Assembly: GCA_043798985.1 (NCBI GenBank)
Contig: JAZDOE010000018.1
Span: forward strand, 8,057 to 72,056
Direction of reading: 5' to 3'
Length of the DNA stretch: 64,000 bases
Source: Candidatus Falkowbacteria bacterium
GTDB lineage: Bacteria > Patescibacteriota > Patescibacteriia > UBA11705 > JACRDX01
Shown here: piece by piece, positions 12,961 to 35,576 of the stretch
Layout of the letters: every line of letters starts with the position of its first letter
Numbering within the stretch: position 1 is the stretch's first letter
Position numbers and translations under genes: made by a program
The notes under the pieces: model-generated
Told to the model about the DNA's origin: nothing
Database searches by the model: none
Seen by the model: the letters and a program-made list of their open reading frames with translations, nothing else

Positions 12961-14586
12961 ATGGAATTGCCATTGGTTTCAATTATAATTACGACGAAAA
13001 ACGAAGAAAAAAATATTGAAAATTGTTTGGCGTCAATAAAAAGCCAGACATATCCGGTTGATAGAATAGAAGTTATTGTTGTTGACAATTCTTCGTCAGA
13101 CAAAACGAAGGAAATCGCGCTGAAATATACCGACAAGGTATTTAATAAAGGACCAGAACGAAGTGCGCAAAGAAATTTTGGAGTTGAAAAAAGCGCGGGC
13201 GAGTATTTTTTGTATTTGGACGCAGACATGATTTTGCAACCGGGAATCATTGATGAATGCGTTTCTTTAACGCAAAAGGACGTTGGCATAGTTGGTTTGT
13301 ATGTTCCGGAAATTGTAACGGGCGCAAAATTTTGGAGCGAGGTTCGCAGATTTGAGCGGAGTTTTTATCATAGTACGGTAATTGATTGCGTTCGATTTAT
13401 AAAACGTAAAACATTTATAGAGGTTGGCGGATTTGATGAGACAATGACTGGCCCGGAAGATTGGGATTTGGATAAAAAATTGCGACTACGTGGGCAGGTA
13501 GCATTAATTAAGACACATCTTTTTCATAACGAAGCAGAGTTTGATCTTAAAAAGTACTTGTCAAAAAAAGCGTATTATATAAAAAGCCTTGATAGGTATA
13601 GCGACAAATGGGGTAAAAATGATGCTGATGTTAAAAAGCAATTAGGAGTTTGCTATCGGTTGATAACCGTATTTACAGAAGACGGAAAATGGATTAAGCT
13701 GATTATGCATCCGGTGTTAACGTCGGGAATGTATTTGTTACGAGTTTTAGTGGGAATAAAATATTGCTGGGCGCTGTTGCAAAAAATTTTGTCCAACCAT
13801 GAAGAAATTCCCAAAAAACAAAAAAACATTGACGAGGAAAGGGAATGTAGAAAAACAGAGATTGTTTCTGTCGGGAAAGCGGAATTGGCTGGTTTTGATG
13901 AGTCCGCAGACTATTTATATAAATTTTTGATGGCAAATAATATTTTAAATTCACAGGAGCATAGTGGTCAATGCTTGGAATTAGGCTGTGGTTTTGGCGC
14001 GTTCACTTTTAAGTTGGCTAAATTGGGCTATAATATTTGCGGTACTGACGTTTCCGAAGAACAAATTGAGTTTAATAATAAAAGATGCGTAGAAAATAAT
14101 TTATCACCAATGTTTAAAGTGTTGAACATAACGACCTTGGATAAGATGGCGGGAGAAAGTGTTGATTATATTTTTCTAACGCAACTATTACATCATTTGG
14201 TTAAAATAGAGGACATTTTTGCGGAACTATTTAGAATTTTAAAACGAAACGGTAAGATTATTATTATAGAAGCCAATACGAGTAATTTTTTGCGCTTCAT
14301 CACCGCGGCTCTTATTAAAATTGATATAGATATATTCAAAAGACGACTTCGATTGGCGGCGCATTCCAACGAAGGATTCCATCTTATTCGAACATATAAA
14401 AAATGTATCAAACAACACGGAAATTTTTCTTTTTATCCATATTGCACGTCCAACAATTATTCTATTCCCAAATATAGGATATTTTCTAGATTGTTGTCTT
14501 TTTTTCATTTGTCGCCGAAATATTATGCTACGGATATTTGTTTAGTTGGGGCAAAAGAAAAGCCTGCGCCTTGTGTTCAAAAATAG
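12961..14586 (+). CDS. Bifunctional GT2 glycosyltransferase / class I SAM-dependent methyltransferase fusion
   Basis: N-terminus VSIIITTKNEEKNIENCLASIKSQTY...DADMIL is GT2. C-terminus CLELGCGFGAFTFKLAKLGYNICGTDVSEEQI is methyltransferase motif I. Confidence 0.65.
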   Translation: MELPLVSIIITTKNEEKNIENCLASIKSQTYPVDRIEVIVVDNSSSDKTKEIALKYTDKVFNKGPERSAQRNFGVEKSAGEYFLYLDADMILQPGIIDECVSLTQKDVGIVGLYVPEIVTGAKFWSEVRRFERSFYHSTVIDCVRFIKRKTFIEVGGFDETMTGPEDWDLDKKLRLRGQVALIKTHLFHNEAEFDLKKYLSKKAYYIKSLDRYSDKWGKNDADVKKQLGVCYRLITVFTEDGKWIKLIMHPVLTSGMYLLRVLVGIKYCWALLQKILSNHEEIPKKQKNIDEERECRKTEIVSVGKAELAGFDESADYLYKFLMANNILNSQEHSGQCLELGCGFGAFTFKLAKLGYNICGTDVSEEQIEFNNKRCVENNLSPMFKVLNITTLDKMAGESVDYIFLTQLLHHLVKIEDIFAELFRILKRNGKIIIIEANTSNFLRFITAALIKIDIDIFKRRLRLAAHSNEGFHLIRTYKKCIKQHGNFSFYPYCTSNNYSIPKYRIFSRLLSFFHLSPKYYATDICLVGAKEKPAPCVQK

Positions 14587-14648: not shown

Positions 14649-17600
14649 ATGCATTTTGTGAAAACTATGGAAAATAATCAAAGTGGAGACAAAAAAGTTG
14701 TTTATATTGGGATGAGTGCGGATCTTATACATCCGGGGCATCTTAATATTATAGAAGAAGGGCGAAAGCTCGGGGAGGTTGTAATTGGTCTTTTAACCGA
14801 CGCGGCGATTGCGAGTTATAAGAGATTGCCGTATATGTCTTACGAGCAAAGGAAAATCGTAATGGAAAATATAAAGGGCGTTGATCGAGTTGTTCCTCAG
14901 GCAACCTTGGATTACGTGGCGAATTTAAAAATGATCAAACCGGATTATGTTTTGCATGGTGATGATTGGAGAACCGGTGCGCAGCAAACAACGAGAACTC
15001 GGGTGATTGAAGCATTGAAAGAGTGGGGCGGAAAGCTTGTTGAAATTCCATATACTCCGGGAATTTCTTCGACTCAATTAAATAAAGCGCTCAAAGAAAT
15101 CGGCGTGACGCCAGACGTGAGAATGAAGAGATTAAAGCGGCTATTACAAGCAAAACAATTAGTTAGAATAATGGAGGCGCATAGCGGGTTGACAGGATTG
15201 ATTGTTGAAAATATTCACATTAGCAGAAATGGCGCAAATAAGGAATTTGATGGAATGTGGTTGAGTAGCTTGACAGAATCCACTTGCAAAGGAAAACCAG
15301 ACATTGAAGCTGTTGATATTACTTCGCGATTACAAACATTGAATACCATTGCCGAAGTCACGACTAAACCCATCATTTTTGATGGAGACACCGGCGGTCA
15401 GGTTGAACATTTTATTTATACGGTCAGAACATTAGAACGATTGGGCGTATCCGCGGTTATAATAGAAGATAAGACGGGATTAAAAAGAAATTCATTGCTG
15501 GGAACGGATGTTCAACAGTTTCAGGACAGTATTGAAGACTTTTCACAAAAGATTTCAGCCGGAAAACGCGCACAGATAACTCGTGATTTTATGATTATTG
15601 CTCGCATAGAGAGTTTAATTTTAAAGAAGGGCGTGGCTGACGCGATAAAAAGAGCAGATGTTTACATAAAGGCTGGGGCTGATGGGATAATGATTCACAG
15701 CAAGGAAAAAGATCCGCAGGAAATATTTGAGTTTTGCCGCGCGTACAAAAAGCTTGAGAGGGTCGTTCCTTTGGTGGTCATTCCAACTACATACAATCAA
15801 ATTACAGAGCAAGAGTTGATTGACCATGGGGTTAATGTTGTTATTTACGCGAATCATCTTTTGCGAAGCGCTTATCCGGCAATGGTAAAAGCAGCAACTT
15901 TGATTTTGGACAATGAACGGGCAATGGAAGCTGATGCGGTGTGTATGCCGATAAAAGAAATTTTGTCGCTTATTCCGTGCAGAGAGAATAATGTAAAAAT
16001 CGTTGATGGTATCAATGTGCCAGATTTTTGTAAATTTTTAAAAAACCTTGGAATAAATTTTTATTGTGGAGTTCCAGATTCCTTATTGAAAGATTTTTGT
16101 GCATATTTATTGGATAATCTGTCCGCGACCGAACATATTATTGCGGCAAATGAGGGCGGGGCGATCGGCTTGGCAACTGGGTATTATTTAGCTACGCAGA
16201 AACTTCCAGTTGTTTATATGCAGAATTCCGGTTTAGGTAATGCGACAAATCCGCTCGTTTCTTTGGTTGATCCAAAAATTTATTCAATCCCAATGTTACT
16301 TTTTATCGGTTGGCGCGGTGAGCCGAATAAAAAAGATGAACCTCAACATTTAAAACAGGGTGAAATAACCCTTGATTTATTAAAAGATATGGGCATTGCT
16401 TATGATATTTTGCCCAATTCATTTGATTCCGCGTGCAAGATTGTTGAGGATGCATATAAGAAAGCAAAACAAGAACAGCGTGCGCGGGCAATGATTGTTA
16501 AAGAGGGAACCTTTTTGTCGTATGTTCAAAAATCCTCGATAAAAAATGAGTATGAACTAAGTAGGGAAGATGCGATTGAAATTATTGCCGCGACGATTGA
16601 AGATACTGCGGCAATTATTTCTACCACTGGCAAATGTTCGCGAGAGCTTTTTGAATATAGAGAAAAAAACGGCGGTGATCATAAAAAAGATTTTCTTACC
16701 GTTGGCTCGATGGGGCATGCTTCGCAAATCGCGCTGGGCATCGCTCAAGAAAAAAGGGATAGGCAGATTTATTGTTTGGATGGAGATGGCGCGGCGATTA
16801 TGCATCTTGGGGCGATGGCGATTATTGGAAACAACGCGGTCGGCAATTTTAAACACATTATTTTAAATAATGGCGCGCATGAATCTGTCGGCGGACAGCC
16901 AACTGTTGGTTTTTCAATAGATTTTTGCGCGATCGCCAAAAATTGTGGTTATAAACAAGCAATATCGGCAAAAACCGAGCAAGAGTTGCGGGTAGCATTG
17001 GATTTTTTGAAAAACAATAACGGTCCTACGTTGCTGGAGGTGCGTGTTAAATGTGGTGCGCGGGCTGATTTGGGACGGCCGACAATCACGCCACAGCAAA
17101 ATAAAGAGGAATTTATAAAATATTTGCAAGAGGGCATTCCTCAACAGCAAGAAGAATTTTTTGGCATTGGGAAGCTGGCTGAAATTTTAAGAAAAAACGG
17201 GGCAAAAAAGATTTTTTTTGTTCATGGAAAAGAATCATATTCAATGAGCGGCGCTCAATATCTTATAGAACCGATTTTGAAAGATTTTGAAGCCACGCAT
17301 TTTTTTGAATTTGACTTAAATCCAAAAATTGAAGATGTGAAGCGGGGGGTAGCCGAGTTTTTGCGAGAAAAGCACGATATAGTTATCGGGTTGGGTGGCG
17401 GTAGTGCGATAGATATGGCAAAAGCGATTAGGGTTTTGGCGGCACAAGATCAACGAGTCGCGGCAGAAGAATTTGTTACGGGTGTTAAAAAAATAAATAA
17501 CCGTGGGGTACCGCTTGTTGTAATTCCTACCACAGCTGGAACAGGAAGCGAGGCAACTCATTTTGCTGTTGTGTATATTGAAAAAAACAAGAATTCGTTG

Positions 17601-18275
17601 AATAGCCCGTTTGTTTTGCCAGATTATTTCATTTTAGATCCTGTTCTTATTCGTCAATTACCAGCAAAAATTATGGCATCGAGCGGAATGGACGCATTGT
17701 GTCAAGCAATCGAATCATTTTGGTGCATTAACTCAACAAAAGAATCAAAAGAATATTCAAAGAAAGCGATTGAGTTAGCGATTGATAATTTAGAGGGGGC
17801 TTATGCCGGAGATATGAATGCGCGTGGGAAAATGCTTTTTGCCGCAAATTTAGCCGGTAAGGCGATAAACATTACGCAGACAACAGCCTGCCATGCCATA
17901 TCATATCCGATTACGAGCTATTTTGGCGTTGCGCATGGACACGCCGTAGCATTAACGCTCAGCGAAATGTTGAAATATAATTTTGAGATTTCAGAGAATG
18001 ATGTTTTGGATTCGCGCGGAGCAGGGTATGTAAAGGAAATGCTCAAAGAGTTACTGATAATTTTACGTGTTAATGACGTTGAATCGGGCGTTTATTTTCT
18101 TAAGGATTTAATGCAAAAATTGAACCTACCGACGCGGTTATCGGAGCTGAACATTAAGAGCGCGGAAGACATTGAGTTGATCATCAAAAATGGTTTTAAT
18201 CCAGATAGAGTAAAAAACAACCCGCGTGCATTGACAGAAGACAATTTAAGAAAAATTTTGCAAGTTATTTATTGA
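14649..18275 (+). CDS. Four-domain phosphonate biosynthesis fusion: cytidylyltransferase (TagD/Fom1-like), PEP phosphomutase, phosphonopyruvate decarboxylase, Fe-dependent alcohol dehydrogenase
   Basis: Domain 1 is an HxGH nucleotidyltransferase ([18 protein letters not shown]). Domain 2 is PEP mutase/ICL superfamily ([21 protein letters not shown] matching the EDKxxPKxNSL mutase motif). Domain 3 is a TPP enzyme ([29 protein letters not shown]). Domain 4 is an Fe-ADH ([24 protein letters not shown]). The 1208 codons are continuous. Confidence 0.75.
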
Positions 18276-18288: not shown

Positions 18289-19083
18289 ATGGAAAAAGAA
18301 GTTGTGCCCAAACAAACAGCAATGGCTTCAAGAAAGGACTATGATTTTACGGCGGTGCCGATGAGATTTTTTGCTTCTTTTTTTGCAAAATGGCTTGCTA
18401 CTCTTGGCGTAACTCCGAATCAGATAACATTATTCAATTTTTTAGTGCTTACCCCGGTCATTTCGTATTTTTTTATAAGAGGTGGGTATCTGGAAAATTT
18501 GATTGCTTTTGGGTTTATTTTTGTATATATGATATTTGATTTGTGCGATGGGATGGTTGCGCGATTAAGATCTTTACAGTCTGGATTCGGACAAACTCTT
18601 GATAGCAGTTTGGATAGAATTTTTCAAGGAGTATTGTTTATTTCAGTGATTTGTGGAGTTGTTTTGACCTCCGCAAACTGGCGGTGGGCTATTCCTGGAA
18701 TGTTGTTATTGTTTGGGCAAGGAATGGCGAACTGCATGGGCTTGGAATTTGAGAAACGGTTTGGGTTTGATGGATATTCCGGATTGCCCACTTTTAACGA
18801 AAAGTTTAAGTTGGGTGGCGTGGTTACTTTAGTAGATAAGTTTTTAAAGAATATCATTGTCCCGCATAATTTTTGGTATATTTTAATTTTTACGTGTAGG
18901 TACCAGTTTTTCCTCGGTATTTTATTTGATCAATTGGGGATATTTTTGATAGTTTTTGCGATAGCTATAAATATTAGATGGATCGTTTTATATCTTTTAC
19001 TAATGCGCTATTTGTATGGCGGAAAAAGTAAGTTACGAAGCCTTACGTTTTTAAAGGAGCTAGAATATGAAAAACGGAGTTAA
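18289..19083 (+). CDS. CDP-alcohol phosphatidyltransferase-family membrane transferase
   Basis: PNQITL plus DLCDGMVARLRSLQSGFGQTLDSSLDRI, which fits D-G-x2-A-R-x8-G-x3-D-x3-D. Polytopic membrane protein. Confidence 0.65.
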   Translation: MEKEVVPKQTAMASRKDYDFTAVPMRFFASFFAKWLATLGVTPNQITLFNFLVLTPVISYFFIRGGYLENLIAFGFIFVYMIFDLCDGMVARLRSLQSGFGQTLDSSLDRIFQGVLFISVICGVVLTSANWRWAIPGMLLLFGQGMANCMGLEFEKRFGFDGYSGLPTFNEKFKLGGVVTLVDKFLKNIIVPHNFWYILIFTCRYQFFLGILFDQLGIFLIVFAIAINIRWIVLYLLLMRYLYGGKSKLRSLTFLKELEYEKRS

Positions 19084-19121
19084 GCCGAGTATAATGTTAA
19101 TGATTAAAGGTTGAGTTTCAT

Positions 19122-21782
19122 ATGAAGATTGTTTTTGTCGTTGCGGGGGATGAAAATTTGGGGGTAGAATATTTAGCGGACTATTTGAAGAAAAATCATC
19201 ATCAAGTTGAGTTATTGTATGACCCGCAAATATTTGGAAAAGCGCACTTAAACATTTCTTTTTTAGGAAGATTGTTTGATTGGAAAAAATTAAATTTAAA
19301 AAAAATAAAAAGAGCCAGTCCTGATATAGTTGGTCTTTCTTGCGTCACGGCAACATATCAGTGGGCGAGAGATTTTGCAAAATTGGTAAAGACGGAATTG
19401 AGCATCCCGATCATTTTTGGTGGAGTTCATCCAACATTGGTTCCTGAGCTAGTTATAAAAGATGATTTTGTGGACATGGTTTGCGTGGGGGAAGGAGAAG
19501 AACCCCTTTTAGAGCTGCTGGATAGTTTGACGAACAATGCGCAGCGAACCGACATTAAAAGTCTTTGGTTTAAAAAAGGGGGGCAAATAATTAAGAATGA
19601 GGCGCGAGCATTGACAGAAAATATAGATAATTATTGCCTTGATAAAGAATTGTTTTTGGACATTTTGCCTAAGAATTTCAGAAAGGAGATAAATTATTTG
19701 ACGAGCAGGGGTTGCCCGTATAGGTGCACGTATTGTGGAAATGAACAAAAGGCTAAAATTTTTCAGGGTAGGGGAAAATATTTAAGACAAAAGAGCGTCC
19801 AGAGCGTGATCGCAGAACTTCAAAAGATAAAAAATGAGTACTCGTCCCAATACGTTGTTTTTGTTGATGATGTTTTAACGATGGATAGAGCTTGGTTTAG
19901 AGAGTTTAGCAAAATTTACGCAGAAAAAATAGGGTTGCCATTTACCTGTTTTGCACATTGTAAAATCATGGATGAGGAATTGATGATATTATTGCGTGAT
20001 GCTGGATGTAAGCTGATTGGATTTGGAGTGCAGTCAGGATCAGAGGAGACAAGGAGGAACGTGTTAAATAGGTATGAAACCAATGAGGAAATTTTGCAAG
20101 CGGCGGAGCTGTGCCGCAAGTATCAGATGCGGTTTATGGTCGATCACATTTTTGACATCCCATTTGATGATACAAACAATCTTGAATCTTTAAGGTTTTA
20201 TAATAAGGTGCGGCCGACAATGCTGAATGCGTTCAATCTGTTATATTTTCCTTGCGCAAAGATAATAGATTCCGGAATAAAGAGCGGAAAGATAACTGAC
20301 GCCGACGTCACCCTGATAAACGAGGGGCGATCAGTTGTCTACGAAACTGGAGCGGCGACTAGAAAAATAAAAGGAAATAAGAAAGACAATTATAGGAAAT
20401 ATGCGCTGCTTTATCAGCTGATGGTTTTATTTCCTCAACGATTTTTTGAAAAAATTTTGAAGCGGCAAAAAATAGTTGACCTCATTGGGATGTTTTCCCT
20501 TTCGTTCGTTTCAGTTGCCAGGATATTAGTCAATATAAAAGCTGGGCATGGATTTATTCCGCTTAGGATTATCAAAGATGAGATTTATTGGATGGTAAAA
20601 ACAGTCAAAGAAAGATCCTCTTGGCGTCCCAGAAAAGATGCGATGGATAAAATTTTAATTATATCGCCGTTTGTTTCTCCAAATGTTGGTGGGGCGGAGA
20701 CGCACATAGATGATTTAAGCGACTATTTAGCTCAAAAAAATTTTGATGTCCAAATTTTAACTTATCAACCATTAACGACGGACGCCAGTGGCGCATCTAA
20801 AGAAATGAGGGGCGCGCGGATAAAGATTAGAAGATATGCATGGTTTGGTCATAATATCTTCCATCGACTAGCGAATTTTCCGATTTTAAATTTTTTATAT
20901 ATAACTCCGTATTTGTTTGTTCGTTCTTTCTTTTTTATGTTAAGTAATAGCCGAAACTTCCGATTGATAAACGCTCACGGGCTTAATGCTGTATTTATCG
21001 CCGTTGTTTTAAAAATTTTTTTTAACAAAAAGATTGTCTTCAGCACAATGGCTCTTTATGATTTCAGGGACGGTTCGGTATTTAAAAAAATTACACAGCG
21101 TGTTTTGCGTAAGGTTGACCGGATTCTTGCACAGTCCGAAGAATCCAAAGCTGAATTTGTCTCCCTTGGTTTTCCCGTGGAAAAAATTGATGTTTTTGTT
21201 CACTGGGTGAATGTGAGTCGTTTTTATCCGATTGAGAAAAATGAAGCTAGATATCATTTAGGGTGGGAGAACAAGTTTACAGTAATTTTTGTCGGGAGAT
21301 TGATTTTTTTAAAAGGAGTGGATTTAGTTATTCGCGCTGCCGAGGCATTACAAGACATAACTTTTGTAATCGTTGGAGATGATGGCCCTCTTTTAGAGGA
21401 CGTTGCGCGCGCCTCAAAAAATATGAAAAATTTAAATTTTGTTGGCAAAGTAGAATACTCGGCATTGTCAAAATATTATAATGCGGCGGATATTTTTCTT
21501 TATCCGGCGAGGTATAAAGAGGATATGGCGCGTGCGATAAACGAATCGCTTGCCTGCGGAACGCCTGTTTTGGTGGCAAATATTGGCGCGGAGCCATATA
21601 CAATTGACTCCTCGGTCGCTCGGCTTATTGTGCCGGAGGTTGAAAGTATTGTCGCGACAATAAAAGCCTTGAAGCAAACTCCATCGTTGTTATTGGACAT
21701 GCAAAGAGCCGCTCCGAAGTTTATCAAAGAGCTGAATCAAAAGGTTGCTGATATAATCATTGAGGGCTATAATAAAGCATGA
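19122..21782 (+). CDS. Fusion protein: N-terminal B12-binding radical SAM (class B, Fom3-like architecture) and C-terminal GT1 (GT4) glycosyltransferase
   Basis: The B12-binding-like N-terminus is followed by TSRGCPYRCTYCGN (canonical CxxxCxxC). The C-terminal half ILIISPFVSPNVGGAETH...ESLACGTPVLVAN is a GT4 fold. Confidence 0.7.
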   Translation: MKIVFVVAGDENLGVEYLADYLKKNHHQVELLYDPQIFGKAHLNISFLGRLFDWKKLNLKKIKRASPDIVGLSCVTATYQWARDFAKLVKTELSIPIIFGGVHPTLVPELVIKDDFVDMVCVGEGEEPLLELLDSLTNNAQRTDIKSLWFKKGGQIIKNEARALTENIDNYCLDKELFLDILPKNFRKEINYLTSRGCPYRCTYCGNEQKAKIFQGRGKYLRQKSVQSVIAELQKIKNEYSSQYVVFVDDVLTMDRAWFREFSKIYAEKIGLPFTCFAHCKIMDEELMILLRDAGCKLIGFGVQSGSEETRRNVLNRYETNEEILQAAELCRKYQMRFMVDHIFDIPFDDTNNLESLRFYNKVRPTMLNAFNLLYFPCAKIIDSGIKSGKITDADVTLINEGRSVVYETGAATRKIKGNKKDNYRKYALLYQLMVLFPQRFFEKILKRQKIVDLIGMFSLSFVSVARILVNIKAGHGFIPLRIIKDEIYWMVKTVKERSSWRPRKDAMDKILIISPFVSPNVGGAETHIDDLSDYLAQKNFDVQILTYQPLTTDASGASKEMRGARIKIRRYAWFGHNIFHRLANFPILNFLYITPYLFVRSFFFMLSNSRNFRLINAHGLNAVFIAVVLKIFFNKKIVFSTMALYDFRDGSVFKKITQRVLRKVDRILAQSEESKAEFVSLGFPVEKIDVFVHWVNVSRFYPIEKNEARYHLGWENKFTVIFVGRLIFLKGVDLVIRAAEALQDITFVIVGDDGPLLEDVARASKNMKNLNFVGKVEYSALSKYYNAADIFLYPARYKEDMARAINESLACGTPVLVANIGAEPYTIDSSVARLIVPEVESIVATIKALKQTPSLLLDMQRAAPKFIKELNQKVADIIIEGYNKA

Positions 21783-21785
21783 TAT

Positions 21786-22772
21786 ATGCAAGAATTTTAT
21801 AAAGGAAAGAATGTATTAATTACTGGCGGGGTGGGTTTTATTGGCAGTAGTATCGCAAAAAAGTTAGTCGAATTTGGTGCCAATGTTTTTATTATGGATT
21901 CGATGTGCCCGGATTACGGCGGCAATCTTTTTAATATTGAATCTATAAAGTCGTCTGTCAATGTTAATATTTCAGATATGCGCGATCCGTATAGTACAGA
22001 ATATTTGGTGAAAGGTAAAGATGTAATTTTCAATTTAGCGGGGCAGGTCAGTCATATTGATAGCATGAAAAATCCTTTTCAGGATTTAGAAATAAATTGT
22101 ACCGCGCAACTTTCTTTGCTGGAACTTTGCAGGAAGGTTAATCCCGCCGTGAAAATTGTTTTTGCATCAACCCGCCAGATTTATGGGAGAGCTGAATATT
22201 TGCCCTTAGACGAGAAGCACATTGTTAATCCAATAGATGTCAATGGGATAAATAAAGCAGCCGGAGAGCGCTACCATACTTTATACAATAATATTTATGG
22301 AATAAAAGCGTGTGCGTTACGACTAACGAATACTTATGGTCCTCGGCAATTAATCAAACATAATAAGCAGGGATTCATTGCGTGGTTTATTAATAGGTTG
22401 GTAACGAATAATAAAATAGCCATTTTCGGTGATGGAATGCAGACTCGAGATTTTAATTATATCGACGATGTTGTGAATGCGTTTCTCGTGGCTGGGAAAA
22501 ACTCGGTAGCTGATGGCGAAGTATTTAACTTGGGGGGCACTGAGCCAGTAACCTTAAAGGCCCTAACAGAACAAATGATTGAGATAAACGGTGCGGGAGA
22601 ATATGAGTTGGTGCCCTTTCCAGATGAAAAAAAGCAGATTGATCTTGGTAGTTGCAGTTGCAGTTTCGACAAAATAAAAAATGTTTTGGGGTGGGTTCCA
22701 GTGGTTTCTTTAAGGGATGGTCTTATTGCGACACTCAATTACTATAAGGAGCACAAGGCGCATTATTTATAA
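21786..22772 (+). CDS. NAD-dependent sugar epimerase/dehydratase (extended SDR)
   Basis: VLITGGVGFIGSSIAKKL glycine-rich motif. YxxxK context. The length is typical of NDP-sugar epimerases. Confidence 0.75.
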   Translation: MQEFYKGKNVLITGGVGFIGSSIAKKLVEFGANVFIMDSMCPDYGGNLFNIESIKSSVNVNISDMRDPYSTEYLVKGKDVIFNLAGQVSHIDSMKNPFQDLEINCTAQLSLLELCRKVNPAVKIVFASTRQIYGRAEYLPLDEKHIVNPIDVNGINKAAGERYHTLYNNIYGIKACALRLTNTYGPRQLIKHNKQGFIAWFINRLVTNNKIAIFGDGMQTRDFNYIDDVVNAFLVAGKNSVADGEVFNLGGTEPVTLKALTEQMIEINGAGEYELVPFPDEKKQIDLGSCSCSFDKIKNVLGWVPVVSLRDGLIATLNYYKEHKAHYL

Positions 22773-22781: not shown

Positions 22782-23876
22782 ATGATTCCATTTTTTGAGT
22801 TAAAGCGACAATATGCGCTGATTAAAAATGCTATACACGAGGAACTGAATGGGATTTTTGAGCGCGGCGTTTATATTTTGGGCGATGAAAATAAAAAATT
22901 TGAACAAGAATTCGCTGATTATTGTGGAGTTGGTTATGCGATAGGTTGTAATTCTGGGACCGATGCTTTGAAATTGGCGATGCTATCGCTAAATATTGGA
23001 GCAGGAGACGAAGTTATAACAGTCTCGCATACAGCAGTTCCAACTGTTTCCTCAATTTATGAGGTTGGAGCCACGCCGGTTTTTGTTGATATAGAAAAAG
23101 ATGGTTTTCTGATGGATGTGAATAAGATTGAAAAAGCTATCACCGCAAAGACAAAAGCGATCATTCCTGTTTCTTTATACGGTGAAGCATGCGATATCCA
23201 GAAAATAAACGAGATAGCTGCAAAATATAACCTATCAGTGATTGAGGATGCGTGCCAAGCGCATGGAGCTATAAGCGCCGGAGTGAAAATTGGTGCCAGA
23301 GCGTTATTAACAGCTTTTAGTTTTTATCCAACGAAGAATTTAGGCGCTTATGGTGATGCTGGTATGGTTACAACCAACAACAAAGAGTTGGCGGGCAAGC
23401 TAGTCAATCTCAGGTTCTATGGAGTGGCAAATAAGGAAAAATATGAGCATACGTTGAGGGGGATCAATTCTAGATTAGATGAAGTACAAGCCGCCATTTT
23501 ACGGATTAAATTAAAATTTTTGGATAGTTGGAATAAACGACGTAGAGAAATTGCGGATTTTTATTTTAAAAATATAAAAAATTCGAATATCGTTTTGCCC
23601 AAAACAAGAGAAGCGGGAGGGCATGTTTTTCATTTATTCGTTATTAGATTTGTAGATAGGGATCGCTTGAAAAAGTATTTGCTTGATAACGGTGTTATTG
23701 CTTTAGTTCATTACCTTTTGCCAGCTCATAAGCAGCCAGTTTTTGCTGGCTTGCAACGAGAGGCATTGCCAGAAACAGAAAAAATTAGCAAGGAAATATT
23801 GTCTTTGCCGGTTTTTCCTGAATTGAAGCAAGAAGAGTTGGAAAAGATTGTTTTTTTGCTTAATAATTTTAAATAA
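22782..23876 (+). CDS. DegT/DnrJ/EryC1/StrS-family PLP-dependent sugar aminotransferase (ArnB-like)
   Basis: FELKRQYALIKNAIHEELNGIFERGVYILGDE, GCNSGTDAL, SFYPTKNLGAYGDAG. Confidence 0.8.
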   Translation: MIPFFELKRQYALIKNAIHEELNGIFERGVYILGDENKKFEQEFADYCGVGYAIGCNSGTDALKLAMLSLNIGAGDEVITVSHTAVPTVSSIYEVGATPVFVDIEKDGFLMDVNKIEKAITAKTKAIIPVSLYGEACDIQKINEIAAKYNLSVIEDACQAHGAISAGVKIGARALLTAFSFYPTKNLGAYGDAGMVTTNNKELAGKLVNLRFYGVANKEKYEHTLRGINSRLDEVQAAILRIKLKFLDSWNKRRREIADFYFKNIKNSNIVLPKTREAGGHVFHLFVIRFVDRDRLKKYLLDNGVIALVHYLLPAHKQPVFAGLQREALPETEKISKEILSLPVFPELKQEELEKIVFLLNNFK

Positions 23877-23888: not shown

Positions 23889-24611
23889 ATGAGCGATTTG
23901 AACACGCCAGTCGATTATAATTTTGACGTACACGCACCACTAAGCTTTATGTATTATTTTACAAAACAATACATGGAGCAGACGCGGCGAACGATCTTGT
24001 CGTGCGGCAAAAATATTGGAGGATTGACACTATATGATATTGGCATTGGGCGCGGTCGTGCGCTGCAAATGTTTAAACATTTAGGCATTCAAAACGTAAT
24101 CGGCTTTGAGATTTCTATGGAAGAAGTAAAATTCGCTGAAAACCAGGCGGCTCGATTAAATATGAATCTAACGGTAGTTGCTGATTCCGCAGATAATATG
24201 GAGCTAAAAAAGATCGCAAATGACAGTTGTAGGTTGGTGACAATGATGAATGTTTTATTTTGTGTAAACGATAAAGTTAAATCTACCATGATTGGACAAG
24301 CAAAAAGGATACTTTGTGCAGGCGGAATTTTGATTGTCTTGGACATGCAAAGACCGTCTTTGTTGTCATTTTTTAGCCTTTTATCAGGTAAGCCGTGGAG
24401 ATTTTTTGGGGAAAAAGAATTTTTGCGTTTGATGGAACCATTACGACCAATCGCAATCGCCGAATCTAATCATTTTTATTTTGAGAATAGAACAATGACC
24501 TTTATAAATAAGTTTCTAAGATTTAATATTTGTTATGCGCTGGACGCGATTGCGCGATTTTTTAAAATACCAGGAGCAACTAAAACGTTCATATTTATTA
24601 AAGAGAATTAA
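23889..24611 (+). CDS. Putative SAM-dependent methyltransferase (weak)
   Basis: YDIGIGRGRALQMF motif-I-like segment. Otherwise uncharacterised. Confidence 0.3.
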   Translation: MSDLNTPVDYNFDVHAPLSFMYYFTKQYMEQTRRTILSCGKNIGGLTLYDIGIGRGRALQMFKHLGIQNVIGFEISMEEVKFAENQAARLNMNLTVVADSADNMELKKIANDSCRLVTMMNVLFCVNDKVKSTMIGQAKRILCAGGILIVLDMQRPSLLSFFSLLSGKPWRFFGEKEFLRLMEPLRPIAIAESNHFYFENRTMTFINKFLRFNICYALDAIARFFKIPGATKTFIFIKEN

Positions 24612-24632: not shown

Positions 24633-25880
24633 ATGGATAAAGAGAAGGACGGCAATGAAATCAAAATAGCCCATTTATATTTTTATGGAGATCAGCATCA
24701 TAAAGATAACGAAGCGGCTCGCTGCAAAAAGAGAGTGATTTCGGACGGTGGATCAAATATTCATACAAATTTTTTGCTTCGGATAAAGGAGCGCGTCGAA
24801 ATAATAATTCATACGTACCAGGACAACTATCAGGTAAAAAATTTTTTTGGTGATTCACCAAGCATAAAGATAAAAGAATATGCGACGCTTTCTGGACTAT
24901 TTAAAAAATATCTATTGAGAATAGAGACTGTTACTCGGTGTTTTTATCCGGGTTTGATTTTTTTATTCAAAAAATTAAAAGAAGATTTTTTAGTAACGCA
25001 GACAGATTTCTTGCCAGATACTTTTGCTGCCTTTTGCGCAAAGATCCGTAATCCTAAAATTATTTGGATAGCATCTTTTTTCTTGGCAGCGCCCGCGCCT
25101 TGGGATAGGCAATCTCCATATAGGGGCAAGCGCTGGATTATTGGATTGTTTTATTGGTTATTGCAAATTCCGTCTATTTGGTTTATAAAACTAAAGGCCG
25201 ATAAAATTATTGTAACCTCAGAACCAGACGTTGTTCAATTTGTTAGCGAGAAGAGGGATAAATCTAAGATTATTGTTGTCCAGGGGGGGGTGGATATTAC
25301 AGATTCTGAAAAATATTTAGGAGCAGGGATCGTTGTGCCGGTTGAGCAAAGAAAGTATGATGCATGTTTTGTCGGCAGGTTTCATTGTCAAAAGGGCGTG
25401 CTTGAATTGGTGGATATTTGGAAAAAGGTTTGTGCACAAAAGCCGACAGCAAAACTGGCAATGATCGGAATCGGACAGTTGGAAAGTGACGTGGAAAAAC
25501 GTATTAAAGAGCATAGTTTGGCAGACAACATTGATTTGCTTGGATTTAAAGATGGCGGAGAAAAATATGAAATTTTTAAGCAAAGTAAAATAATGGTGCA
25601 TCCTGCTACTTATGATAGCGGAGGAATGGCAGCAGCTGGCGGAATGGCATGGGGATTGCCGGCCGTCTCGTTTGATCTAGAAGCGTTGCAGACGTATTAT
25701 CCAAAAGGAATGATTAAATCAGTAATTGGCGATGATCAGGGTTTTGCGGATAATTTGATTAAATTACTAGACGATAAAGATTTGTATGCTCGTACAACAA
25801 CGGACGCATTATCGTTGATTAGGGATGTCTGGAATTGGGATAAACGTGCGGACGAAATGTATAAAAAAATGTTTTTATGA
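24633..25880 (+). CDS. Glycosyltransferase family 1 (GT4)
   Basis: C-terminal GT1 domain (ACFVGRFHCQKG, HPATYDSGGMAAAGGMAWGLPAVSFD). Confidence 0.65.
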   Translation: MDKEKDGNEIKIAHLYFYGDQHHKDNEAARCKKRVISDGGSNIHTNFLLRIKERVEIIIHTYQDNYQVKNFFGDSPSIKIKEYATLSGLFKKYLLRIETVTRCFYPGLIFLFKKLKEDFLVTQTDFLPDTFAAFCAKIRNPKIIWIASFFLAAPAPWDRQSPYRGKRWIIGLFYWLLQIPSIWFIKLKADKIIVTSEPDVVQFVSEKRDKSKIIVVQGGVDITDSEKYLGAGIVVPVEQRKYDACFVGRFHCQKGVLELVDIWKKVCAQKPTAKLAMIGIGQLESDVEKRIKEHSLADNIDLLGFKDGGEKYEIFKQSKIMVHPATYDSGGMAAAGGMAWGLPAVSFDLEALQTYYPKGMIKSVIGDDQGFADNLIKLLDDKDLYARTTTDALSLIRDVWNWDKRADEMYKKMFL

Positions 25881-31719: not shown

Positions 31720-32994
31720 ATGCGGTTGTGTTTTTATAATCCGCACGCGATAATCAATGCCACAGGTGAAACCGTCGTATCAAGATTGGCACAATTTTTT
31801 GGTACTAACAAAAAAAAACTGAGAAAGCACGTTCAGAAATATTCATTTTTGTTAAATATTTTAAGAAACAAAAAATACAAAACGGCCATTATCGTCGATG
31901 GCGCAGAAACTTCGTTCGGAGCGGTTTTAAATAGAATCTTGCTCCTTAAAAATAATCAATTCATCTACTGCGCGATCTCTTTTGTAGAAATATACATTTG
32001 GTGTTTGTTAAACAAAATAAATCCATTGAAACAAACGATAATTTTCAATAAAAAAAGATTGCGAATAGACGAAGATATTTTGTTTGGCTTTGCGTTCTGT
32101 TCGGAGTTATTTTTAAACGAACAATTACTGAGTAAAAGTATAATGAAATCCTTTAACGGTCTAAAGATCTTGCATGCTTCTCATTTTTATAAATTTACAA
32201 AACGCGTCGCTGAGAATGTTCATAAAGCGGGAATTAAATACATGGTTGCAGAAACCGATCTGAAAAAGTCGCCGTATTTTAATAAGTTTTTTGGTTTTAT
32301 TGAAAAAGTGTATATTCTGCCACATGTTTTGAGAGAAAAATATATAAAAATTACGGATTTCGCAAATAGAAAAAATATTTGCCTTGCGCTGGGAACGCTT
32401 GTGATTGAAAGTGCGCAGGACAAATCCAACCAAGACTATTTGGAATTTTTCAAAATAGACACATTGCATCCGATGAGAAAAATCATTTTTGAAAATAAAG
32501 ATAATCTTCCGCAAATTGATTGTTGCATTAACCTTCATAATAAAGACAGGATGGTGATTTCGCAAAAATCAAAATGGTACAACAAAAACGGTTTTTTCAA
32601 ATTGTTCTACGATTTATTTTTTTTAGCAGAGGGAAAAGAATATCACAGCATGGACATTGTGAAAAAATATAATGAATATAAAATGTTTATCGCGCCCGAA
32701 GAAAATATCGGTTTAACCTCTATAAACGTATGCGAAGGAATGGCTTGCGGCTGCGCGTATATAGGGCTGGATAGCGATATGTATAAAGATATGGGCATGA
32801 TTGGCACGCAACATTATATTGCGTATGACGGCATGTTTGAAGATTTAAAAAATAAAATAAATTATTATCAAAATCATCCGAGCGAGCTGGAACAAATCGC
32901 GCAAAACGGTTATGTGTTTGCGCACGAAAATTTTGCGGAAGAAAAAGTGGTCGCAGATTTTTGGACTTACTTGGAAAAATTGATACAACGATAA
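31720..32994 (+). CDS. Divergent glycosyltransferase family 1-like protein
   Basis: C-terminus EGMACGCAYIGLDSDMY...ELEQIAQNGYVFAHENF resembles GT1 C-terminal domains. The N-terminus is unassigned. Confidence 0.4.
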   Translation: MRLCFYNPHAIINATGETVVSRLAQFFGTNKKKLRKHVQKYSFLLNILRNKKYKTAIIVDGAETSFGAVLNRILLLKNNQFIYCAISFVEIYIWCLLNKINPLKQTIIFNKKRLRIDEDILFGFAFCSELFLNEQLLSKSIMKSFNGLKILHASHFYKFTKRVAENVHKAGIKYMVAETDLKKSPYFNKFFGFIEKVYILPHVLREKYIKITDFANRKNICLALGTLVIESAQDKSNQDYLEFFKIDTLHPMRKIIFENKDNLPQIDCCINLHNKDRMVISQKSKWYNKNGFFKLFYDLFFLAEGKEYHSMDIVKKYNEYKMFIAPEENIGLTSINVCEGMACGCAYIGLDSDMYKDMGMIGTQHYIAYDGMFEDLKNKINYYQNHPSELEQIAQNGYVFAHENFAEEKVVADFWTYLEKLIQR

Positions 32995-35576
32995 TGAAAA
33001 ATTGTTTTAATTCAGTACGGTCTATTAAGATTGGCATTATTTTTTTAACATGTCTTTTCTTTTTAATTTTGCTGATTCTATACTCTCAAAATTATTTGCT
33101 TTTGGGCGGGGAGGGGAATTATATTACTGATTTTCAGCTCACAAAAGACGCGGGGATTTTTACATGGGTTTCGCACATTCAAGGATTGGGATTTCCAAGC
33201 CCTATCTTAAATGCGCTTCGTGGAATTTTCGACCTATTCGCGCTGCTACAAAAATTAACGCTTTCTTTTAAGGTTGCAAATATTGTAAGTGCTTGGCTGG
33301 TTTATATTCTGCCCTTTCTTTCAATGTTTTGGCTGTTAAGCAAAATATTGAAAAGGAGTTTTCCCCTTGCGTATTTTGTTTCATTATTTTATATCATAAA
33401 TCCTTTCAGTACGTTCCATTTACAAGGATTAATGTTTTGGAATATTGCGCTGCTGTTTGTTCTGCCTTTGATTTTCGGCGTGCTTTATAAATATTATTCT
33501 CATGGCTTAAAACTGTTTTTCTTTTTTGGATTGTTGACCAGTCTCTTATCCTTTTCGCTCGCGAATATTCCTTATTTGGGTATTTTCCAGATTTTTTTAT
33601 TCAGTTCATTGATTATAATTCCCTACATGCAAGAAAAAACGCCGCGCGTCCGCGCTGTTGTTAAAAATATCGTCATAACGGAACTAAGTTTTTTGCTTTT
33701 TAACGCGTGGTGGTTTTTAAATCTGTTGCGTTTTCAGATGCAGGACATTGGTCTTTATTATACAAAAGAATTTGCCGTTAGTTGGGCGCAGGCTTATGCG
33801 GGCGATGGAAGTATAATAGCGAAACTTTTCTCATTAACTTCATTAATTTCAAGCAACGATGATAATTTTTTTGCAAGTTTTTTTTACAGCATTCCGATGA
33901 GGCTGATTCTGCTTGTGCCATTTGGATTACTTACCTTTCAGTTTTTTATAAAGCCAAGCAAAGAATATTCTGTTGATAAAAAAATTGTTTCAATTCTCGC
34001 GCTTTTCGTTGCAGGGATTATGTTTTTTGCCAAAGGCGCGAATCAACCACTCGGCGAGCTGTATATTTGGATGCTGAATCACATTCCGTTTTTTATTATC
34101 TTCAAAAGTCCGATAGAAAAATTTTCTTTGCTTTTTGTCTTTTTTTTGGCGCTCACGATGATTTATGTTTTTAAAAATATAAAAACCAAATGGGCGTATT
34201 GTTTGTTTGCAGTTTACCTGACCGCGTGCAGCATCCCATATCTTAGTTTGAATTTTATGCCTGATTTTAGATTCGAAAAAGGCGCCCAAGGAGAAGAGGA
34301 TAAATATATTTCCAAAAAATATGTTTATAAAGAAAATTATTTTGCGGCGGCAGAATCGCTCAATAAACAAAAATTAGAATGTCGATATTTAAGTTTGCCC
34401 GGCTCAGCGAATTACCAGGTAACTTTATTGAACCATGATGGCAATAAATATTACCGCGGCATGGATCCATTCGTTTATTCGGTTAATAAGCCTTTTATTA
34501 CATCCTACTCAACGCCCGCTTTGAATTTTATATTTTACGGTCTCTCGAACGATTCCATTGAAATTTTTTTAAACGCGTTTAATATAAGAAAGATAATCGT
34601 AAATCAAGATCTCTATCCATCATTTGGCAGGGTGGAGAAGGAGCTTCCCGAAGAATTGATAAGTATTTTTTCTAAAAAATATAAAAAAGAAGATTTTAGC
34701 CCAATAACAGTTTTTAGCGTGAAAGATTTTTTGCCGCTTATTTATGTCCCACGCAATTTGATAGTAGCGGAAAACGCTACTGAGCTATCTGCTATTCTTT
34801 CGGAAGCAGATTATAAAATTGATTCGGCGATTTATTTTAAAAATCAGCTTAGTGATAAGGAGACGCAGCCATCTCTGGCGGCAAAAGGCGTCCTTCCGGC
34901 GGTAGAATTCAAAAGAATCAACTCGATTAAATATCGCGTCGTTTTGCATCAAGCGCACGGTGAGTTGCCTGTAATTTTTAACGAATCGTTTCATGCTGGC
35001 TGGAAATTGTATCCGACAAATTTGCAGTCGGTTGATAGCGTTGGTCTGCAGAACAGGCTTGCAGATTATAATATTTTGGATGGCAACGAAGATGATCAAG
35101 CGACAATCGATGAGGTTAAAAATTATATTCAACAAGGATTTATAACCTCGCTTGGCAACGGCAAAGAAAAGACGGTAAAGCATTGGCGACTAGTCGTTGA
35201 TAAGAAAAAATTGGATTACATAGAAAAATATAAAATTGATTTTGTATCTAAAAATTTTCATGGCACAATTCAAAATAATAATCTTATCGATGGAAATTTT
35301 TATGAGACATGGCGATTCAATTCGCTTGCTAACCATGGCAGCCATGTAAAAGTGAATGGTTTTTTTAATAGTTGGATTATTAACGTGGACGATATTTGCG
35401 CTGGAAAAACGTTATGCCAGTGGAATCCTAACGGAACCTATGACATGGAATTAATTTTAGAATTTTCGCCGCAACGATTATTTTATTATGGGCTGGCGAC
35501 GTCTATCGCAACACTGTTTTTGTCGCTCGCATCTTTGTTCTTTGTGAGTTTAATAAAAAAACACGCGAAACAATAA
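32994..35576 (+). CDS. Large polytopic membrane protein (about 12-14 TM N-terminal domain plus soluble C-terminal domain); candidate GT-C/YfhO-like glycan transferase or polymerase
   Basis: Topology inferred from the hydrophobicity pattern only. The start is chosen at the ATG overlapping the upstream stop (TAATG); the ORF track gives 32961. Confidence 0.3.
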   Translation: MKNCFNSVRSIKIGIIFLTCLFFLILLILYSQNYLLLGGEGNYITDFQLTKDAGIFTWVSHIQGLGFPSPILNALRGIFDLFALLQKLTLSFKVANIVSAWLVYILPFLSMFWLLSKILKRSFPLAYFVSLFYIINPFSTFHLQGLMFWNIALLFVLPLIFGVLYKYYSHGLKLFFFFGLLTSLLSFSLANIPYLGIFQIFLFSSLIIIPYMQEKTPRVRAVVKNIVITELSFLLFNAWWFLNLLRFQMQDIGLYYTKEFAVSWAQAYAGDGSIIAKLFSLTSLISSNDDNFFASFFYSIPMRLILLVPFGLLTFQFFIKPSKEYSVDKKIVSILALFVAGIMFFAKGANQPLGELYIWMLNHIPFFIIFKSPIEKFSLLFVFFLALTMIYVFKNIKTKWAYCLFAVYLTACSIPYLSLNFMPDFRFEKGAQGEEDKYISKKYVYKENYFAAAESLNKQKLECRYLSLPGSANYQVTLLNHDGNKYYRGMDPFVYSVNKPFITSYSTPALNFIFYGLSNDSIEIFLNAFNIRKIIVNQDLYPSFGRVEKELPEELISIFSKKYKKEDFSPITVFSVKDFLPLIYVPRNLIVAENATELSAILSEADYKIDSAIYFKNQLSDKETQPSLAAKGVLPAVEFKRINSIKYRVVLHQAHGELPVIFNESFHAGWKLYPTNLQSVDSVGLQNRLADYNILDGNEDDQATIDEVKNYIQQGFITSLGNGKEKTVKHWRLVVDKKKLDYIEKYKIDFVSKNFHGTIQNNNLIDGNFYETWRFNSLANHGSHVKVNGFFNSWIINVDDICAGKTLCQWNPNGTYDMELILEFSPQRLFYYGLATSIATLFLSLASLFFVSLIKKHAKQ

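Follow-up and report, generated by a model that had tools for sequence, protein, structure and literature searches.

A predicted phosphonyl transferase and a B12-binding radical SAM–glycosyltransferase fusion in a candidate surface-glycan cluster of Candidatus Falkowbacteria

The fosfomycin pathway of Streptomyces wedmorensis (Fom1, Fom2, FomC, and Fom3) leads from phosphoenolpyruvate (PEP) via phosphonopyruvate, phosphonoacetaldehyde, and 2-hydroxyethylphosphonate (HEP) to CMP-HEP. The same four activities are found in a 64-kb stretch of DNA from a metagenome-assembled genome (MAG) of Candidatus Falkowbacteria, a lineage of the candidate phyla radiation (CPR); this whole stretch of 64,000 nucleotides is referred to as the window. 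They are combined in one protein of 1208 aa, and the two genes that follow it are, together with it, the subject of this analysis: one encodes a membrane protein of the CDP-alcohol phosphotransferase family (CDP-OH protein), the other a fusion of a class B, that is, B12-binding, radical S-adenosylmethionine (SAM) domain with a GT4-family glycosyltransferase (GT). The radical SAM half and its orthologues are named rSAM_A. The CDP-OH protein is most likely a HEP-phosphonyl transferase, predicted to move the head group from CMP-HEP to an acceptor hydroxyl, and gene order and domain fusion are good evidence that rSAM_A would act together with a GT.

As in the fosfomycin pathway, a class B radical SAM gene lies near the HEP genes of the window. 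Unlike there, the four activities reside in a single protein in a glycan-cluster setting; no equivalents of FomD or Fom4 (HppE) were seen in the window cluster; the radical SAM domain comes from a glycan-associated CPR family that is also found without phosphonate genes; and CMP-HEP is proposed to be a transfer donor rather than a transient intermediate. These observations do not amount to a further methylation pathway of the fosfomycin type.

For the step that brings CMP-activated phosphonates to the cell surface, which the literature treats as unsettled, LicD-like enzymes are the candidates usually named (PMC6697681). Pnt/phosphonoglycan clusters feature PepM fused to PntC or to a CTP_transf_like domain and LicD-like transferases (Rice et al. 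2019, PMC6697681), and HEP-bearing phosphonoglycans occur in Glycomyces and Stackebrandtia according to the accounts of Yu et al. 2014 given in PMC8942020 and PMC13576164. The window shares with these clusters the fusion of cytidylyltransferase (CyT) and PepM, the surroundings of GT and methyltransferase genes, and a CMP-phosphonate as the proposed surface donor. It differs in its transferase, which belongs to the CDP-alcohol phosphotransferase family instead of LicD, in its CPR host, and in that some related loci seem to import the head group. The closest cultured-bacterial relative of the PepM domain (66% identity) is encoded on plasmid pFA2 of Fulvitalea axinellae (L023, NZ_AP025316.1 288548-293006): the same module of CyT-PepM, phosphonopyruvate decarboxylase (Ppd), and phosphonoacetaldehyde reductase is present, followed by a LicD family gene instead of CDP-OH. 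The predicted phosphonolipid clusters of Nostoc and Burkholderia contain a CDP-alcohol phosphatidyltransferase together with a nucleotidyltransferase (NTP transferase), pepM, ppd, and a 2-aminoethylphosphonate (AEP) transaminase, AEPT (PMC5987646). As in the window, an enzyme of this family goes together with PepM and a nucleotidyltransferase, with a CMP-phosphonate as donor and an alcohol as acceptor; those clusters are AEP-type and read as lipid-directed, whereas the window is HEP-type and lies in a glycan cluster—the CDP-OH groups being compared by family only. Surface clusters of PepM, cytidylyltransferase, and transferase, and a CDP-alcohol phosphatidyltransferase beside pepM, are already known. 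New are the CPR host; an HEP pathway that is fused into one protein and goes together, within a glycan cluster, with a small CDP-OH clade; hints that a variant may rely on scavenging; and the rSAM_A::GT4 architecture within a large, uncharacterized, glycan-associated class B radical SAM family.

The second module has its closest analogues elsewhere. GenK and GenD1 catalyze the class B radical SAM C-methylation of aminoglycoside sugars. Like rSAM_A, the enzymes GenK, GenD1/GntE, and Fms7, and HpnJ from the tailoring of hopanoid glycosides, feature a B12-binding domain and a radical SAM core with a CX3CX2C motif, a likeness taken as an analogy only and not as family membership. Aminoglycoside pathways appear in a review's list of class B radical SAM methylases (PMC12931638). 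The aminoglycoside-type neighbors—GT4, DegT, and SAM-dependent N/O-methyltransferases—resemble those of rSAM_A (general knowledge and PMC12931638). Unlike the aminoglycoside class B enzymes and HpnJ, the rSAM_A of the window is covalently fused to a GT and fits no curated family.

The genes and domains under study are listed by window coordinates, strand, identity, and basis of assignment:

14649..18275, + strand: four-domain phosphonate enzyme (Pfam, NCBIfam, PDB 5x3d match)
18289..19083, + strand: CDP-alcohol phosphotransferase family membrane protein, 264 aa (PF01066, AlphaFold model)
18538..18615, + strand: catalytic signature D84xxD87G88xxA91R92-x8-G101xxxD105xxxD109 (translation)
19122..21782, + strand: rSAM_A::GT4 fusion, 886 aa, with rSAM_A at residues 1-~500 and GT4 at ~505-886 (Pfam)
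19155..19517, + strand: B12-binding Rossmann domain of the fusion, residues 12-132 (PF02310)
19713..19736, + strand: radical SAM cluster motif C198-x3-C202-x2-C205, CPYRCTYC (translation)
20685..21719, + strand: GT4 (GT-B) domain of the fusion, residues 522-866 (PF13439 and PF00534)

The predicted CMP-HEP supply and the CDP-OH protein

The 1208-aa enzyme features four domains: a CyT at residues ~14-151; a PEP mutase (PepM) at ~160-445; a Ppd at ~460-830; and an iron-dependent alcohol dehydrogenase (Fe-ADH) at ~838-1208. The corresponding Pfam matches are PF01467, PF13714, PF02776/PF02775, and PF00465/PF25137. The PepM domain scores 407.7 bits against TIGR02320 (cut-off 319.55) and holds the EDKxxxxxNS motif, read as [10 protein letters not shown]; the Ppd domain scores 492.5 bits against TIGR03297 (cut-off 312.5). 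The Fe-ADH domain stays below the Phn_Fe-ADH cut-off (179 vs 423.7) and is, hence, assigned at the family level only. The CyT domain is identical to the CyTase domain of Fom1 (PDB 5x3d) at 94 of 138 positions (68%, E 7.6e-65), and the Fom1 domain produces CMP-HEP (PMC6697681). Because PepM and Ppd lie above equivalog cut-offs, an Fe-ADH domain is present, and the CyT is this close to Fom1, the product of the four-domain enzyme should be CMP-2-hydroxyethylphosphonate, as judged by its sequence. The four activities form one protein in the window and are spread over two to four separate genes in four related CPR loci (L006, L018, L019, and L025). According to Rice et al. 2019 (PMC6697681), just 0.1% of Ppm proteins are fusions with TPP domains.

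A gap of 13 bp separates the CDP-OH gene from the end of the four-domain gene. Its product matches PF01066 with 61.6 bits (E 1.5e-16, cut-off 22) and carries D84-LC-D87-G88-MV-A91-R92-x8-G101-QTL-D105-SSL-D109, the exact CDP-alcohol phosphotransferase signature; the initial annotation, which had named the family from the motif DG-x2-AR-x8-G-x3-D-x3-D, is thereby confirmed, and the predicted structure agrees. Across 15 clade members, D84, D87, G88, G101, and D109 are invariant, and A91 and D105 nearly so. The AlphaFold model (pLDDT 89.3) features a polytopic, all-helical membrane fold as in the solved members of the family. The best structural match is AF2299, with a TM-score of 0.59-0.60, a root-mean-square deviation of 3.9 Å, and 26-27% identity, followed by phosphatidylinositol phosphate (PIP) synthases and IPCT-DIPPS; in sequence, too, no solved protein comes closer than AF2299 (E 4e-14). 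AF2299, DIPPS, and the PIP synthases (PIPS) share the fold and catalytic motif with the window protein and use polyol-phosphate acceptors, DIPPS also a soluble CDP-polyol donor. The window protein differs from AF2299 by lacking its cytoplasmic domain, and its identity to the other solved members lies below 26-27%.

Orthology to PgsA or PssA, which the initial annotation had held up as a competing identity, is rejected (pgsA 22.8 vs 109.1 bits, pssA 31.4 vs 107 bits), and so is membership in the equivalogs of PIPS (52.9 vs 170 bits) and of archaetidylinositol-phosphate synthase (AIPS; 56.7 vs 180 bits). Because these scores of 23-57 bits face cut-offs of 107-180, the CDP-OH protein is not a housekeeping phospholipid synthase. 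It also lies far below the DIPPS cut-off and is a member of a small clade of ~250-aa proteins, which feature the additional shared motifs TPNQ, FGQxMA, LKNIIVP, and TCRY. A word-indexed protein search recovered 7-19 proteins only; exhaustive HMMER searching showed the family to be larger and graded: 46 cluster representatives pass E<=1e-30, and weaker matches trail off gradually beyond that level. The plasmid collection gave only weak partial matches to the CDP-OH protein, and no CDP-OH neighbor was seen at the plasmid-borne pepM loci examined in Burkholderia and Rhizobium.

A locus search with six closer CDP-OH sequences gave three genomic and seven metagenomic loci, several of them redundant. 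The window proteins were mapped on the fetched loci by tblastn, and removal of duplicates led to 11 informative CDP-OH loci. PepM is adjacent to the CDP-OH gene or at most 7 kb away in five of these 11: the window, L006, L008/L015, L014, and L018. In L006, CyT-PepM, Ppd, and ADH lie 6.5 kb downstream of CDP-OH; in L008/L015, PepM begins ~90 bp after CDP-OH; and in L018, a contiguous, unfused run comprises CyT-PepM, Ppd, Fe-ADH, GT4, radical SAM, DegT, methyltransferase, and CDP-OH. In L014, CDP-OH is followed by PepM::NTP_transf_3 (PepM::PntC), a class V aminotransferase (AEPT), and a further NTP transferase—an AEP-type Pnt cluster. The clade is, hence, found with both HEP-type and AEP-type pathways. 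The earlier proposal that the CDP-OH protein moves a phosphonate head group from a CMP donor is strengthened by the CMP-HEP-type enzyme upstream and by clade members directly beside PepM or a few kb away from it in five independent loci. The contig of L006 (SOET01000053.1) is labelled Candidatus Kuenenia hertensis (Planctomycetota), and its cluster genes are 40-70% identical to those of the window; the contig may be mis-binned, or the cluster may have been horizontally transferred.

Three further CDP-OH loci (L002, L010, and L004) carry head-group-type genes without PepM. L010:10792-13391, directly after CDP-OH, encodes an HD-domain protein, a stand-alone PF01467 cytidylyltransferase, and a major facilitator superfamily (MFS) transporter. 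L004:18038-21527, at the cluster edge, encodes a PhnD-like binding protein, an ATP-binding cassette (ABC) transporter, and a protein joining a helix-turn-helix (HTH) to an NTP_transf_3 domain (HTH::NTP_transf_3). Since the CDP-OH genes of L010 and L004 are accompanied by a cytidylyltransferase or an NTP_transf_3 protein plus a transporter, these two PepM-less loci suggest a head group that is scavenged, not synthesized. If true, some CPR lineages would scavenge environmental phosphonates via PhnD/ABC or MFS transporters and a stand-alone cytidylyltransferase. L002 features a split Ppd-like decarboxylase, an Fe-ADH, and an NTP transferase. A 309-aa open reading frame (L002:6483-7412) in the expected PepM position, upstream of the Ppd-like genes, has no Pfam or NCBIfam match; as a divergent PepM it was rejected, having neither a profile match nor an EDK...NS motif, and it may be unrelated to the pathway or may lead to the keto-acid substrate by a route that is not homologous.

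In at least nine of the 11 informative loci, the CDP-OH gene is surrounded by genes for GTs, DegT enzymes, and methyltransferases or has a GT-C-like membrane protein at its side; in three loci, a GT-C/AftD-like protein is its direct neighbor. Lipid-synthesis genes were seen in none of the CDP-OH loci.

The radical SAM–GT4 fusion and its family

The assignment of the 886-aa protein in the initial annotation as a class B radical SAM (CPYRCTYC)::GT4 fusion is borne out by four Pfam domains, all of which, like PF01066 in the CDP-OH protein, exceed their cut-offs: PF02310 (B12-binding, residues 12-132, 66.3 vs 32.1 bits); PF04055 (Radical_SAM, residues 193-347, 71.5 vs 29.5 bits), inside which C198PYRC202TYC205 is located; PF13439 (Glyco_transf_4, residues 522-700, 55.1 vs 28.5 bits); and PF00534 (Glycos_transf_1, residues 712-866, 90.3 vs 26.4 bits). 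C198, C202, and C205 are invariant in 43 members of the rSAM_A family. Since an independent metagenome contig encodes a full-length orthologue (P0002, 891 aa, 66% identity), the fusion is no assembly artefact. At E<=1e-3, a database search with the first 500 residues yields 1165 relatives. Among the 120 best-scoring cluster representatives of these, a GT domain is present in three and the rest are stand-alone proteins of ~500 aa, in agreement with the rarity that had been ascribed to such fusions. These best 120 relatives belong nearly all to CPR bacteria or DPANN archaea and are 36-54% identical. Within the fetched loci, the orthogroup is tight: against the window domain, its members reach 406 bits or more and other radical SAM paralogues of the same loci 135 bits at most. 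The plasmid collection held no rSAM_A match above 28% identity.

The rSAM_A half is a class B radical SAM enzyme; sequence and fold are silent on its chemistry. All NCBIfam matches of the domain reach at most ~40% of their cut-off, and the named methylase families at most ~25%; the scores are 103.5 vs 481 for BchE, 96.4 vs 600 for PhpK (TIGR04479), 82.3 vs 578 for HpnJ, and 72.3 vs 360 for QCMT. Its structural model (pLDDT 91.7) resembles TsrM, QCMT (9ccb), CysS, OxsB, and TokK to much the same degree, with TM-scores of 0.59-0.67 (E 1e-16 to 1e-20).

rSAM_A occurs in 13 loci: the window, L001-L006, L010, L018-L021, and L025. It is fused to, or at most one gene away from, a GT4-family gene in nine of the 13; a DegT aminotransferase is present in 12, and a dehydratase/epimerase of the short-chain dehydrogenase/reductase (SDR) type is adjacent in several. 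The GT4 type that is fused in the window and in L001 has stand-alone orthologues (40-50% identity) adjoining rSAM_A in L003, L004, L006, L010, and L018. L002 has a fused GT domain of a different type, which is related to the product of the window gene 24633-25880. Two fused GT4 types mean that the fusion of rSAM_A to a GT arose independently, at least twice, and it is because of these two independent fusions that a partnership of rSAM_A with a GT is proposed.

The closest relative of the window copy is found in L001, with 69% identity over the rSAM part. L001 keeps the gene order fusion–SDR–DegT–methyltransferase…GT1–methyltransferase–FkbM, with SDR and DegT proteins 60-66% identical to those of the window; the order SDR–DegT also occurs in L003, at 50-62% identity. 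Phosphonate and CDP-OH genes are absent from the 18.9 kb of L001 seen. Where the window has the four-domain gene and CDP-OH, between its GT2 gene and the fusion, L001 has another radical SAM paralogue. The rSAM_A orthologues of L001, L003, and L021 show 42-69% identity; L003 and L021 likewise have no PepM, cytidylyltransferase, or CDP-OH in view, and the rSAM_A locus L005 is without PepM or CyT. In a neighbor-joining tree of rSAM_A, loci with and without HEP modules interleave, and the window copy is sister to that of the phosphonate-free L001. Of the gene trio, whose co-occurrence the initial annotation had proposed to follow through related genomes, CDP-OH lies near PepM in five of 11 loci, and rSAM_A also occurs in phosphonate-free clusters.

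One of these loci is exceptional in its gene content. L021:1-21575 (ENA ERZ27247363 contig k141_1479939) is a single cluster of glycan type in which eight B12-binding radical SAM genes and one SPASM radical SAM gene are interspersed with genes for GT1/GT2 enzymes, methyltransferases, and asparagine synthases; class B radical SAM genes are extremely concentrated here. Up to eight such genes per CPR glycan locus would point to extensive radical tailoring of sugars by hosts that import cobalamin; CPR bacteria and DPANN archaea are generally thought incapable of cobalamin synthesis.

Proposed division of labor and its alternatives

The three genes would belong to one surface-glycan cluster of Falkowbacteria with two cooperating modules. 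In the first, the four-domain enzyme would convert PEP via phosphonopyruvate, phosphonoacetaldehyde, and HEP to CMP-HEP, which the CDP-OH enzyme in the membrane would bind via the DxxDGxxAR...GxxxDxxxD metal site. An acceptor hydroxyl would attack the phosphonate phosphorus, CMP would be released, and an ester of the form O-P(O)(O-)-CH2CH2OH would be left. The acceptor is most probably a sugar hydroxyl of a lipid-linked glycan intermediate at the cytoplasmic face. With that, the CDP-OH enzyme would fill the role proposed for LicD-type transferases in other phosphonoglycan clusters. The transferase role is assigned because of the co-location with PepM, the supply of the donor, the LicD gene beside the same module in Fulvitalea, and the CDP-alcohol phosphatidyltransferase genes of predicted phosphonolipid clusters with pepM; the lipid-linked glycan is favored as acceptor because the gene is wedged among GT, DegT, and methyltransferase genes and, in three loci, stands beside the GT-C/AftD-like protein. 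In the second module, the rSAM_A::GT4 fusion, the SDR, the DegT, and three to four SAM methyltransferases would make a tailored amino-deoxy sugar and put it in place. Transfer of this sugar would fall to the GT4 half, and the B12-binding radical SAM half would modify the sugar or its nucleotide precursor by radical chemistry. By analogy to GenK and GenD1 on aminoglycoside sugars, this step would most likely be a C-methylation at an unactivated carbon.

This explanation as a whole, with CDP-OH phosphonylating a glycan and the fusion tailoring a sugar, is about evenly poised between holding and failing. We read the HEP cassette as a frequent accessory of the rSAM_A glycan pathway, in which case the rSAM_A/GT4/DegT sugar, or a neighboring one, is probably what gets phosphonylated. 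The broader generalization—that rSAM_A is a large B12-binding radical SAM family tailoring the surface sugars of CPR and DPANN with GT4 partners, onto whose glycan the CDP-OH clade esterifies HEP or AEP from the CMP-activated forms—is put forward tentatively, at somewhat less than an even chance. If the reading is true, the clade would supply the first CDP-alcohol phosphotransferase to combine a phosphonate as donor with a glycan as acceptor, and the CDP-OH route could account for part of the HEP esters in environmental polysaccharides. The four-domain CMP-HEP synthase and the 264-aa CDP-OH protein would make up a compact, directly testable two-gene system for the transfer of phosphonates to the surface, and the natural rSAM_A::GT4 fusion offers a handle for identifying the radical SAM substrate.

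Several observations weigh against this reading. The context sample is small, was partly chosen via the CDP-OH gene, and covers ±10 kb on MAG and metagenome contigs. No PepM or cytidylyltransferase is in view in L005/L007/L013 (a related Falkowbacteria genome, seen from -14 to +10 kb), nor beside the clade members on the 8-9 kb contigs of L016 and L017. Because some CDP-OH loci are without PepM and CyT, CMP-HEP is not the sole donor of the clade, unless the genes lie elsewhere. No CDP-OH gene lies within 10 kb of the HEP modules in L019 and L025. A lipid acceptor, giving a phosphonolipid, suits the usual chemistry of the family equally well. On the radical SAM side, the structural matches share 15-17% identity (AprD4 13%) with rSAM_A and no solved structure is close; since rSAM_A is near no curated family or structure, methylation is proposed as the commonest class B chemistry. 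Finally, HEP modules accompany rSAM_A in five of its 13 loci (the window, L006, L018, L019, and L025), with CyT domains 62-70% and PepM domains 59-65% identical to those of the window. About 5% of bacterial genomes carry phosphonate biosynthetic genes (pepM); five of 13 is well above this frequency and leaves room for a phosphonate-directed role of rSAM_A.

The donor side of these objections carries an alternative, according to which the CDP-OH protein is not phosphonate-specific but a general enzyme of CPR glycan clusters that uses CDP-polyol, CDP-inositol, CDP-glycerol, or CDP-diacylglycerol. It would add a phospho-alcohol decoration or make a phosphatidylinositol-like lipid anchor for GT4 enzymes, and the proximity to PepM would be incidental to shared glycan-cluster membership. 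The clade members of L005, L016, and L017 without PepM and CyT fit such a role, as do the best curated and structural matches, which are archaetidylinositol-phosphate and PIP synthases and AF2299/DIPPS; the window module 27371-31301 could yield another activated alcohol or acid, and an inositol-monophosphatase family gene lies at the edge of the L001 cluster. However, direct adjacency to PepM is seen in three different arrangements: in the window, the CDP-OH gene follows the ADH domain, and in L008/L015 and in L014 it precedes PepM; L014 is a phosphonate cluster that is not obviously a glycan cluster. Moreover, PepM-less loci often have a cytidylyltransferase and a transporter instead, including the PhnD-like phosphonate-binding protein, and the scores of 57 vs 180 bits for AIPS and 53 vs 170 bits for PIPS weigh against this alternative. 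A non-specific CDP-OH enzyme is, on balance, unlikely.

On the acceptor side, the CDP-OH protein could use CMP-HEP on a diacylglycerol-like membrane lipid, with the rSAM_A::GT4 fusion being functionally unrelated. Such phosphonolipid formation would be canonical chemistry of the family: eukaryotic choline/ethanolamine phosphotransferases accept CMP-AEP in the synthesis of phosphonolipids. Such a role has also been ascribed to the CDP-alcohol phosphatidyltransferase genes in pepM clusters of Nostoc and Burkholderia (PMC5987646). Yet the gene is embedded among glycan-type genes in at least nine of the 11 informative loci, has the GT-C/AftD-like protein as a direct neighbor in three, and is nowhere accompanied by a lipid-synthesis gene, which makes a membrane lipid an improbable acceptor, with little weight left to it.

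The last alternative was part of the initial annotation, according to which the operon may methylate a CMP-phosphonate and install it on a lipid or glycan; the installation is retained in the phosphonyl transfer proposed here, and the methylation is the least supported part of that inference. A Fom3-like radical SAM enzyme would convert CMP-HEP to CMP-2-hydroxypropylphosphonate, or methylate HEP after its transfer, and CDP-OH would install the methylated phosphonate; it is backed by an upstream enzyme that contains all of Fom1 (CyTase and PepM), Fom2, and FomC with a CyTase 68% identical, by the HEP modules of five rSAM_A loci and the Ppd-like set of L002, by rSAM_A and CDP-OH lying at most three genes apart in seven loci, and by a PhpK-family model among the better, though weak, NCBIfam matches (96 bits), but it is very unlikely, given that rSAM_A does not depend on a HEP or CMP-HEP supply (no PepM, cytidylyltransferase, or CDP-OH with the 42-69% identical orthologues of L001, L003, and L021; no PepM or CyT in L005), that loci with and without HEP modules interleave and the window domain is sister to the phosphonate-free L001 copy, that rSAM_A is twice fused to GTs and never to CyT, PepM, or CDP-OH, that the need for a CMP donor already accounts for the cytidylyl activation, as in LicD-containing clusters, and that the PhpK score is 96 against a cut-off of 600.

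The surrounding gene run

The three genes lie in a run of + strand genes that extends over ~7.2-39 kb of the window and is taken as one cell-surface glycan cluster. Two of its genes, a second B12-binding radical SAM gene (rSAM_B) and a GT2::methyltransferase fusion, both upstream of the phosphonate enzyme, are missing from the initial annotation. The neighbors are as follows:

11472-12959, + strand: second B12-binding radical SAM protein (rSAM_B), cluster motif CWWGKCSFC (profile matches)
12961-14586, + strand: GT2::methyltransferase fusion, directly upstream of the phosphonate gene
21786-22772, + strand: SDR sugar-nucleotide dehydratase/epimerase (Pfam)
22782-23876, + strand: DegT-type aminotransferase, like the SDR a conserved partner of rSAM_A::GT4 (Pfam)
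23889-24611, + strand: SAM methyltransferase (Pfam; syntenic in L001)
24633-25880, + strand: GT1/GT4 glycosyltransferase (Pfam; syntenic in L001)
25877-26749 and 26746-27384, + strand: two further SAM methyltransferases (Pfam; the operon-like run continues)
32961..35576, + strand: 871-aa polytopic membrane protein, probably GT-C-like (~10 N-terminal transmembrane segments)

From the four-domain gene on, the successive gaps between genes are 13, 38, 3, and 9 bp on one strand. Scans of the window for promoters and terminators gave the same counts as in shuffled sequence; because these scans were uninformative, co-transcription is judged solely from the same-strand gaps of 3-62 bp, with which it is compatible. 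A cobalamin riboswitch was looked for in the window, and none was found.

Orthologues of the upstream pair of rSAM_B and GT2::methyltransferase (11472-14586) are found in L001, L004, L005, and L010, and the adjacency of rSAM_B to a GT2 gene is conserved in L004, L005, and L010. The cluster motif of rSAM_B is of the CX4CX2C type (residue 228), not CX3CX2C, and its best match, HpnJ, is sub-threshold (147 bits vs a cut-off of 578). In L001:1-2259, the rSAM_B orthologue is split by an intein (Hint/intein-splicing and LAGLIDADG), the flanks of which are 66-88% identical to the window protein.

The 871-aa membrane protein (32961-35576) has no Pfam match in its window copy. Its homologues flank the CDP-OH gene in L008/L015 and L018, and the one of L018 is recorded as PF11847 GT-C_AftD.

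A second small pathway is encoded at 27371-31301 of the window: a KdsC-like phosphatase of the haloacid dehalogenase (HAD) type; an AroE-like shikimate dehydrogenase, which scores 202 bits against TIGR00507, right at the cut-off; a 528-aa NTP transferase, whose C-terminal half is without family assignment; and a GatZ/KbaZ-like protein. As judged by these family assignments, the product may be another activated sugar acid or polyol. Two polytopic membrane proteins without Pfam match are encoded at 36706-38406 and 5939-7240: the former features a weak match to MmpA, annotated as 'trehalose lipid delivery' (76 bits vs 210), and the latter weakly resembles a Polysacc_synt (Wzx-like) protein of L004.

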